Assembly: GCF_025612915.1 (NCBI RefSeq)
Contig: NC_069115.1
Location: forward strand, 8,423,492 to 8,479,114
Length of the DNA: 55,623 bases
Direction of reading: 5' to 3'
DNA from: Crassostrea angulata
Taxonomy: Eukaryota
This document shows, piece after piece, positions 27,275-28,209 of this stretch. The notes beneath the pieces are model-generated. The model was not told the DNA's origin. It worked only from the letters and a program-made list of their open reading frames with translations, and ran no database searches. The first letter of the stretch is position 1, and each line of letters starts with the position of its first letter. The translations under genes and the position numbers were made by a program.

Positions 27275-28170
27275 GCAGTGAATCACAACGGGGCTTTGCA
27301 TCTTTCTGAACTAAAAAATCGTCACAACAGATGGCAATGAAAAAGAAAAGCTGGACTTGACAGTTATGCTGGGCTCTATCTTCTCTACAAATCTAGATAA
27401 AACAATAACATCTTGCAAGGAATCATGAGCATATATTGATCCTCAAAAACTGTTTCATACACTTTAGGTTGGGAGTAAGATGGCAAGTTAGGAAGACATT
27501 CTTTAAAAAGAGGAAGAGTATCAATTACACCGATTACTCCAGTTGACATGAAGCTTTCAAACAAATTGTTATTTTCTATTGCTGAAAGTAATACTGGAAT
27601 GTCAAAAGATTTACAGTTATGACCAACTAAAACCACTTTCTCTTACTTTGCCAAAAACATAAAAAGTTTCTGTAAAGCCAGTTGGATTCTGGAGTATTCA
27701 ACTTCCCTGTTATTGTGGTACTTTTTCCCGTTTTCAAACTGTATACCTGTAACTGTTGAAGCAGCAGGAGAAATTTTCTCTCCAGGCTTAATATAACGGT
27801 TAAAAATTTCTTCATTAGAGTCTACACTAACTGATAACTGTATGATATGGGAGTCACGACCTGAAAATGTTCAAAATTGAATTTGCATAACTGAGGAAGT
27901 GGATTAAATATTTTATTCTTTGAATTTGAAGCAGCCATATATCAGGGCAAGTGTCGAACCATATATTCCTTGGACAAATTAATACATGTAATACAAATTA
28001 AACTAACAGCACTTGTGACGTTTTTAGTTAAATATGGTTTGTGACCTAGGTTTTTTCATGGTCAGTAAATTTATGTAAGTTGAAAAATCATACCAGGATA
28101 ACTGAATGCATGTATACTTATTAAATTCCATCAAAGTTGAATAATTCATACCAAATCCAGTTGTTTCAAC

Positions 28171-28175
<5 letters not shown>
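27275..28175 (-). pseudogene. DEDDh (DnaQ-like) 3'-5' exonuclease gene, two exons with a GT-AG intron; 5' end truncated by a HINE insertion, plus an in-frame TAA and one frameshift
   Basis: Exon 1 (28152-28175): (L)DVETTGFG is motif I, followed by donor G|GTATGA. Intron 27861-28151 ends ...cattttcag. Exon 2 (27275-27860): GRDSHIIQLSVSVDSNEEIFNRYIKPGEKISPAASTVTGIQFENGKKYHNNREVEYSRIQLALQKLFMFLAK*EKVVLVGHNCKSFDIPVLL (motif II, GHN..FD) ... KVYETVFEDQ, then after a 1-nt frameshift YAHDSLQDVIVLSRF (motif III, H..a.D). The 5' boundary of the HINE at 28176 lies directly against the motif I codons. Confidence 0.55.

Positions 28176-28209
<34 letters not shown>

Follow-up and report, generated by a model that had tools for sequence, protein, structure and literature searches.

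What kind of gene did a broken exonuclease in the genome of Crassostrea angulata belong to, and what broke it? The question is raised by a stretch of 55,623 nucleotides (NCBI RefSeq assembly GCF_025612915.1, contig NC_069115.1, positions 8,423,492 to 8,479,114), hereafter the window, whose minus strand encodes a DEDDh exonuclease interrupted next to position 28176 by a HINE, a non-autonomous Helentron. The initial annotation of this sequence described an intron-containing exonuclease gene whose 5' end had been cut by the HINE. Our results indicate that the locus is very probably a dead, 5'-truncated copy of a KolobokD transposon (32701 to 22699, minus strand) with a nested HINE. KolobokD is a Kolobok lineage of molluscs, arthropods and cnidarians in which a DEDDh exonuclease follows the transposase (Kojima & Bao 2022, Mob DNA 13:24, PMC9587614).

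The exonuclease was identified by reading the minus strand. The motif-I piece, TTT GAT GTT GAA ACA ACT GGA TTT G, lies at 28176-28152 and is preceded by the letters ...CCTCTTG. It is followed by an intron (GTATGA...TTTTCAG, 28151-27861), after which the sequence continues from 27860 with GT CGT GAC TCC CAT ATC ATA CAG.... The in-phase splice product is FDVETTGFG/RDSHIIQLSV, and motif II (GHNCKSFD) and motif III (YAHDSLQDV) are both found downstream of RDSHIIQLSV. The motifs therefore follow the DEDDh order, with D-x-E in motif I (FDVETTG), D in motif II (GHNCKSFD) and H-x4-D in motif III (AHDSLQD). Each of these elements had been read in the initial annotation, and comparison with profiles and structures bore them out. 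With its lesions repaired, the translation matched Pfam RNase_T (PF00929) at 4.2e-13, above the cutoff of that model, and PML_C at 1.7e-23. Among PDB structures, the Plex9.1-type exonucleases (9MRC/9MRD, 9L85 and 9L8B) matched at 2e-20 to 8e-24, and each of the three motifs fell within these alignments. The motif residues were aligned one by one to 9L85 and 9L8B, and they are invariant columns of the family alignment. The nearest homologue scored 2e-145, and the repaired translation was 90% identical to a 261-aa protein in the public protein collection. Because of these Pfam, PDB and homologue scores, and because the intron is exactly missing from spliced mRNA-like contigs of a paralogue, the exonuclease pattern is far beyond chance.

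The surviving coding pieces are given below. The list refers to three comparison sequences: L002, a 4.9-kb public contig that is ~95% identical to the window on both sides of the insert; L003, one of the mRNA-like contigs; and P0007, the C. angulata protein LOC128160870.

27052-27860, minus strand: last exon, with the remaining DEDDh exonuclease (motifs II and III) and the SAM-like PML_C domain (Pfam, tblastn, codon alignment to L002)
27054-27052, minus strand: stop codon TAG of the last exon
27861-28151, minus strand: GT-AG intron separating motif I from the remainder of the exonuclease (from the sequence; present in genomic L002, spliced out in L003)
28152-28176, minus strand: 3' piece of the split exon, FDVETTGFG, with DEDDh motif I
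32110-32280, minus strand: 5' piece of the split exon, YKRNASSEVREG...NECHFAF (tblastn with P0007 residues 4-60, 93%; matches L002 and L003)
32434-32509, minus strand: what is left of the preceding exon, ...RIKQRTVANSHKFKK...SMK (acceptor and ~85 bp at the 5' side deleted; length change in a poly-A run)
32615-32701, minus strand: last 87 bp of the transposase-region exon, HFSSSGNLSYRVAACVAQKNNGHKCLVS (L002 position 911 aligns to 32701)

The two pieces of the motif-I exon show what the HINE did. P0007 has ~60 residues ahead of motif I, and tblastn placed its residues 4-60 at 32279-32109 on the same strand with 93% identity. At the end of this exon half the window reads ...CAT TTT GCC TTTTT/AGCTCACCTGAGC.... 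In L002, the counterpart of window position 32110 is contiguous with that of 28180 and reads CATTTTGCCTTTTTTGATGTTGAA (CATTTTGCCTTTTTTGATGTTGAAACAGCTGGACTTG/gtatga); the exon is therefore split by a 3.93-kb insertion. When the insert and two T's are removed, ...HFAFFDVETTG... is restored exactly as in L002. The empty site is TTTTTT and the filled site is TTTTT[...]TTT, with no clear target-site duplication (TSD); a 2-bp duplication of TT is indistinguishable from two terminal T's of the HINE. The HINE terminus thus adjoins 28176, as first described, with the exact base uncertain by ~2 nt within the T-run. That the HINE splits the motif-I exon was also correct, but the 5' end of the exon was not removed, since it lies at 32280-32110. 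The extent first given to the element (28176-30283) has to be revised: the true block runs from 32109 to 28177 and is twice as long, and 30283 marks an internal repeat of the 5' subterminal inverted repeat (subTIR). Coding sequence does exist beyond 30283, which is one part of what the initial annotation had named as evidence against its own reading (intact upstream coding sequence and start codon, spliced across the element), although no intact start codon belonging to the open reading frame (ORF) accompanies it.

28177-32109, minus strand: HINE block of 3.93 kb (non-autonomous Helentron), co-oriented with the ORF and absent from L002; ends ambiguous by ~2 T
32097-32108, minus strand: 5' subTIR, GCTCACCTGAGC
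32080-32091, minus strand: inverted repeat (IR), GCTCAAGTGAGC, complementary to the subTIR
32027-32062, minus strand: GTCY microsatellite
30265-30283, minus strand: internal second copy of CCTTTTT+AGCTCACCTGAG (T-run and 5' subTIR), abutting the repeat array
28520-30260, minus strand: central tandem repeats, 166-bp unit, 10.5 copies, Cg170-like (Tandem Repeats Finder)
28199-28209, minus strand: 3' subTIR, CTCAGGTGAGC, complementary to the 5' subTIR
28182-28193, minus strand: 3' palindrome, GGCCCATGGGCC

The Cg_HINE elements of oysters consist of a 5' subTIR, an IR, a GTCY microsatellite, central repeats, a 3' subTIR and a palindrome (PMC7492417). The block presents every one of these substructures of the Cg_HINE or Pearl-type oyster non-autonomous Helentrons (Vojvoda Zeljko et al. 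2020, PMC7492417; Thomas et al. 2014, PMC4067079), with the 5' subTIR, IR and microsatellite in its left flank, and like them it sits in a T-rich run without a clear TSD. It differs from the description in two respects: 1.7 kb separate its left flank from the repeats, as opposed to up to 500 bp (PMC7492417), and its second, internal 5' subTIR abuts the array, so that a composite or a tandem pair is possible. A 19-nt string, CCTTTTTAGCTCACCTGAG, occurs at 32098-32116, the outer 5' end of the block, and again at 30265-30283 against the satellite array; between the two occurrences lies a 1.83-kb left part in which a separate 3' subTIR and palindrome are lacking. The duplicated string could reflect tandem insertion, recombination or composite transposition.

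We considered whether L002 might be an allelic or orthologous empty site and rejected this, as its flanks past the 3' terminal inverted repeat (TIR) and TTAA are wholly different. Because it shares the same terminus and then continues into a completely different flank, L002 represents a paralogous insertion and not an allele. Additional paralogous sequence is provided by L003-L006, contigs from four different sequencing runs with a common 730-aa ORF. The 3' end of L003 reads AATAAA...AAAAAA, and three introns are absent from this contig at exactly the predicted junctions, including GGACTTG/GTCGTGAC. These contigs are most simply explained as spliced mRNAs of an ~85%-identical paralogue. The claim that the window holds an intron-containing genomic copy and not a processed retrocopy accordingly stands: intron 28151-27861 is retained with both splice sites and is missing from the mRNA-like L003. 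The intron between 32433 and 32281 is likewise retained, and the one after 32615 keeps its donor end, the acceptor being gone with the 85-bp deletion. RNA-seq alignment had been proposed as a check on the gene structure; the spliced contigs confirm the intron for the family, but not for the window locus.

The expressed paralogue was found in two forms. One (P0010) carries a frameshift between exonuclease motifs II and III and has the 730-aa ORF (at least seven contigs); the other (P0137) is intact, with 876 aa, and was seen in at least six contigs. The transposon terminus GGATATGTG is the exact point at which the 5' ends of these contigs part from one another, as would be expected if read-in transcribes different genomic copies.

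The identity of the disrupted ORF emerged from its relatives. Upstream of the exonuclease, the ORF of L002 matches the C-terminal half of the Pfam family PF20700, "Mutator-like transposase" (1e-49), and this transposase ORF runs straight into SSSGNLSYRV / ...HFSSSGNLSYRVAACVAQK..., a segment that the window also has, at 32701-32615. When the concatenated L002 protein was used as query, ~90 proteins of 600-900 aa were returned that combine PF20700, PF00929 and PF25244 (transposase, RNase_T and PML_C). These fusion proteins come from Mytilus, Saccostrea, Magallana/Crassostrea, Argopecten, Pinctada, Haliotis, Lingula, Ischnura, Venturia, Cotesia and Acropora. P0137, a close relative, is intact: within its 876 aa, residues 72-402 form the transposase, 599-762 the exonuclease and 801-872 PML_C. 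Full-length family members begin with MTKYRKQGF... and carry the transposase. The window copy, truncated as it is at 32701, has no transposase domain, but the 95%-identical L002 and P0137 do. In both of these, a CCHC finger follows the first D, a DxxH motif is present as DKNH, and a second finger precedes the glutamate of NESFN; these predicted features are consistent with the published description of Kolobok transposases.

The family is also dispersed, with multiple near-identical copies. In the genomes of Saccostrea echinata and S. cucullata, clustering at 90% identity or higher revealed many distinct loci each. A 14.3-kb unit recurs at three of the S. echinata loci; its copies are 98.5-99.7% identical, lie within unrelated flanks and have sharp ends: TTAA/GGTGTTTCGCTTCTGAC...GTCAGAAGCCAAACACC/TTAA. 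KolobokD elements generate TTAA TSDs and have 5'-RR...YY-3' termini (PMC9587614). Such termini and short TIRs were observed in the window family (GGATATGTGA.CCTGA...TCAGGTTCACATGTCC; 5'-GG...CC-3'), and TTAA flanks were found at the 3' end in the window (22695-22698), in L002, at a separate 5' fragment in the window (17936-17939) and at both ends of the three S. echinata copies. The arrangement of coding sequences also agrees, since KolobokD encodes a DDE transposase and, downstream of it, an exonuclease of the DEDDh (DnaQ-like) type that resembles Exu and TREX, as do the relatives of the window copy. The three S. echinata elements (L007, L008 and L009) are full KolobokD copies of ~14.3 kb, compared with a coding sequence of ~2.7 kb, and contain internal repeats of ~165 bp; L007 has an additional 4.8-kb insertion.

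22699-32701, minus strand: whole KolobokD remnant, 5'-truncated, including later insertions (~95% DNA identity to L002 from 32701 down to the TIR)
22699-22715, minus strand: 3' TIR, GGACATGTGAACCTGAG on the plus strand, with terminus ...CC-3' on the element strand (pattern search)
22695-22698, no strand assigned: TTAA at the 3' terminus of the transposon, a Kolobok-type target site (window ...CTCAGGTTCACATGTCC/TTAA/CTGAGAAG; L002 ...GTCC/TTAA/CTGGTTAT)

The 3' TIR matches GGATATGTGAACCTGAC, the 5' terminus of the mRNA-like contigs L003 and L006, and the flanks of the window copy and L002 differ beyond TTAA+CTG. MULE and MuDR transposons have TSDs of 8-11 bp and usually long TIRs. Classification as a MULE, which the Pfam name would suggest, was rejected given the TTAA flanks and TIRs of ~17-21 nt; to our knowledge, Pfam has no Kolobok-specific model. 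A literature search for a Mutator-exonuclease fusion returned no match, and it was the search for Kolobok and TTAA that led to KolobokD.

Compared with a full KolobokD, the window copy is a fragment that lacks the transposase domain and the 5' TIR and that has stops, frameshifts and a nested HINE. Upstream, the copy ends at 32701: L002 position 911 aligns to this base, and the sequence from 32702 upward matches intron 2 and exons 1-2 of another, unrelated oyster gene. The entire transposase domain is absent because the copy stops there. A further segment, L002 1122-1208, has no counterpart in the window, corresponding to the loss of ~85 bp and the acceptor of the exon VNRSLGLSPGF.... The last exon contains the following lesions:

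27643-27645, minus strand: nonsense codon TAA (TTA in L002, TTC in L003)
27431-27433 (about 27433), minus strand: 1-nt deletion, frameshift just before motif III
27311-27313, minus strand: nonsense codon TAG (AAG in L002 and L003)
27303-27304, minus strand: second 1-nt deletion, frameshift
27141-27143, minus strand: nonsense codon TAA (GAA in L002 and L003)
27119-27120, minus strand: 2-nt insertion (CA), frameshift in the PML_C region

Relative to L002 and L003, this exon has thus accumulated three nonsense codons and three frameshifting indels. The TAA at 27645-27643 and the frameshift near 27433 had both been recognized in the initial annotation; inactivating mutations in addition to the HINE are real, but they were undercounted, as that reading stopped at 27275, whereas the last exon runs to 27055. 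In the codon alignment, the last exon is 96.8% identical to that of L002, with four synonymous and 21 non-synonymous differing codons. This pattern of substitutions and lesions is one of neutral decay. An uninterrupted exonuclease ORF is precluded by three stops, three frameshifts, the 3.93-kb insertion and the 85-bp exon deletion. The HINE does disrupt the ORF, but its role was overstated: it is one lesion among about ten.

The domain identities, splice junctions, empty site in a paralogue, element termini and lesions are direct observations, and they suggest the following history, in a presumed order. An intact KolobokD encodes one spliced ORF of ~876 aa, in which a linker connects a Kolobok-type DDE transposase to a DEDDh 3'-5' exonuclease, with a SAM-like PML_C domain after it. 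The exonuclease may take part in transposition; it has been proposed, as a proposal only, to trim DNA 3' ends (Kojima & Bao, PMC9587614). Such an element, with short TIRs that begin with GG and end with CC, would have inserted at a TTAA. We infer that a deletion then took the 5' part of the copy together with the 3' part of the neighbouring gene. Of the coding sequence, the final 87 bp of the transposase-region exon, half of the exon after it, the exon with motif I and the last exon remain; the 3' untranslated region (UTR) and the 3' TIR with its TTAA are also still there. A satellite-carrying HINE presumably entered the TTTTTT of the motif-I exon by rolling-circle transposition, the mechanism inferred for Helentrons, adding 3.93 kb (32109-28177) and parting ...HFAF from FDVETTG. 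Independently, the last exon would have gathered its three nonsense substitutions and three frameshifts under no selection, and further small elements would have inserted in the 3' UTR region.

Could the locus instead be a host gene with the single function of a DEDDh exonuclease, inactivated by a HINE that removed its 5' end? This proposal builds on motifs, an intron and a HINE junction that are all real, and some bivalve relatives are named "protein PML-like" by NCBI. We nevertheless consider it very unlikely: the first half of the exon still exists, at 32280-32110; in near relatives a single ORF encodes both the exonuclease and a DDE transposase; members of the family occur in many copies, with TIRs and flanking TTAA; and there are many other lesions together with a neutral pattern of substitution. 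What had been called an exonuclease gene is better described, not as a host gene, but as the C-terminal module of a KolobokD transposase-exonuclease fusion ORF. It is also conceivable that the HINE picked up an exonuclease fragment, of host or transposon DNA, at its 3' end and carried it along. Helitron-type elements are known to capture flanking sequence, and the exonuclease piece begins exactly at the HINE terminus. However, L002 has the same exon unbroken with the flanks joined precisely, and the other half of the exon lies at the opposite end of the block. The block shares its termini with window copies at 14914-16694 and ~50450-52630, whose flanks are unrelated, and the other HINE copies in the window are followed by unrelated sequence after ...CCTCTTGT. 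We give this explanation almost no credence.

A different possibility is that two exons further upstream (33570-33196 and 32975-32751) were spliced to the exonuclease exons of the transposon as a chimeric or domesticated gene, since turned into a pseudogene. The two sets of exons share their orientation, 32701-32691 reads gttcatttcag and resembles an acceptor, and a join from exon 2 (phase 2) to 32690 would preserve the Kolobok reading frame. Such an in-frame junction is expected by chance in one case out of three, however, and the next exon lacks its acceptor and 85 bp, which breaks the frame. Six more disabling mutations and the HINE would come on top of this. The Saccostrea gene homologous to the upstream exons has no exonuclease part, and our homologue search did not find a homologue with this chimeric architecture. 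Overall, we judge a chimeric gene to be highly improbable.

Several points nevertheless weigh against a truncated KolobokD copy with a single nested HINE. The window copy was placed in KolobokD by way of its 3' terminus and of a paralogue that is 95% identical to it, and KolobokD was assigned by its published description and not against Repbase consensus sequences. The Pfam label of the transposase is "Mutator-like" and not Kolobok. Without a Kolobok empty site, the TTAA could formally be part of the TIR rather than a duplication. As for the upstream exons, they are co-oriented with an acceptor-like site at 32691 that is in frame, so that a chimeric transcript is possible. Finally, the presence of two 5' subTIRs (32108 and 30276) may indicate two HINE-related pieces or a composite and not one element.

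The exonuclease and PML_C module of this transposon resembles a set of vertebrate proteins, namely Plex9 and the C-terminal module of PML (Mathavarajah et al. 2023, PMC10123124; PXL preprint PMC12934764). As a single sequence, the window module aligned with zebrafish Plex9.1 (9MRC) at 2e-20, and it has the SAM-like PML_C domain in common with these proteins (1.7e-23); it therefore combines specific Plex9 similarity with PML_C. The KolobokD exonuclease family profile matched the Plex9.1-type chains (9MRC, 9MRD, 9L85 and 9L8B) at 1e-47 to 1e-56, with the DEDDh residues conserved. The same profile matched Exuperantia (Exu) at 1e-13 and TREX1/2 at 1e-9 to 1e-10, ~35 orders of magnitude more weakly. 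TREX1, TREX2 and Exu share the DEDDh fold, and Exu also has the layout of an exonuclease followed by a SAM-like domain, but they are far more distant (1e-9 to 1e-13 as opposed to 1e-47 to 1e-56). Judged by these scores, the vertebrate Plex9 exonucleases have by far their closest relative in the KolobokD module. Whereas the window module is the tail of a transposon ORF in a dead copy, Plex9 and PML belong to the host and carry no transposase. Proteins of the Plex9 or PML type are encoded by stand-alone host genes, RBCC-fused in the case of PML; the closest relatives of the window module are fused to a DDE transposase and multicopy, with TIRs.

Because the KolobokD profile matches Plex9 far better than Exu or TREX1, it is possible, although we hold the idea only tentatively and think it rather less probable than its negation, that the C-terminus of vertebrate PML and the Plex9 genes arose by domestication of a KolobokD-type transposon. 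The opposite direction, in which a transposon captured a host exonuclease, could equally account for the likeness. We found no paper connecting PML or Plex9 with Kolobok in the literature that we searched.

Both components of the locus are of kinds already described, KolobokD in 2022 and Cg_HINE in 2020, and nothing about it is mechanistically new. For annotation, the locus should be masked as a nested transposon (a KolobokD fragment and a HINE) and not as a disrupted host exonuclease gene, and it is not evidence of insertional gene inactivation. It does offer a clean worked example of a HINE inserted into a T-run with a recoverable empty site. The bivalve proteins that combine a "Mutator-like transposase" with RNase_T and PML_C, and that annotations often label "PML-like" or "uncharacterized", very probably come from KolobokD transposons. 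Beyond this, the one point of wider bearing is how strongly and specifically the transposon module resembles vertebrate Plex9 and PML.

The two exons upstream of the remnant (33570-33196 and 32975-32751, minus strand) belong to an oyster-specific gene that is 59-62% identical to Saccostrea cucullata LOC134255726. It has an N-terminal CxxC...CxxC region and a DHSY motif; a Pfam match to zf-AD (E=0.3) is not significant. Its later exons are not in the window. Homology to intron 2 of the Saccostrea homologue (P0008), which has no exonuclease part, stops at 32702, exactly where homology to L002 starts. Intron 2 of the oyster gene is thus fused at 32702/32701 to the transposon ORF, at an acceptor-like, in-frame site. 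We also considered these exons as the N-terminus of the exonuclease and rejected them, since full-length family members have the transposase in that position and P0008 lacks an exonuclease; the switch of homology at 32702/32701 rules them out as well.

Two other pieces of Kolobok-type sequence are found in the window. The first, at 42499-41243 (minus strand), is an old, heavily decayed transposase remnant, 27-59% identical to P0010 residues 256-466; it contains stops, and a short insert is repeated in it twice over. Its order matches that of the main remnant, with P0010 residue 466 ending at 41243 and residue 468 starting at 32701, so that the two are colinear. We rejected it as the missing 5' half: its identity is 27-59% as opposed to 92% past the junction, it has many stops, and it lies 8.5 kb away. 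It is an older, separate copy. The second piece, at 17936-18340 (plus strand), is from KolobokD and begins with TTAA/GGATATGTGAGCCTGAC (the 5' TIR) and comprises the 5' UTR, the first coding exon and a GT donor. It matches P0010 residues 8-46 at 64% and L003 48-428 at 81% DNA identity; its strand is opposite to that of the main remnant, and the remainder of its ORF is absent.

Rfam and tRNA scans of window positions 20000-36000 returned nothing, and neither did a genomic look-up for P0007. The 3' region of the main remnant contains several insertions relative to L002. The one at 25944-26784 (841 bp), in the 3' UTR region, shows a 10-bp direct duplication (TTCAGTTATA), has inverted termini (GGATTGGATACCG...CGGTATCCAACCC) and looks like a non-autonomous DNA transposon. 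Two further blocks inside the 3' region, at 24569-25715 (1147 bp) and 23471-23845 (375 bp), are absent from L002, and the latter ends in a GTCT microsatellite. Additional HINE copies and Cg170-like arrays of ~166 bp are located at 12794-13597, 14914-16694 and 50450-52630. The copy at 14914-16694 is 85-88% identical to the block at 28177-32109 and has both termini in common with it.

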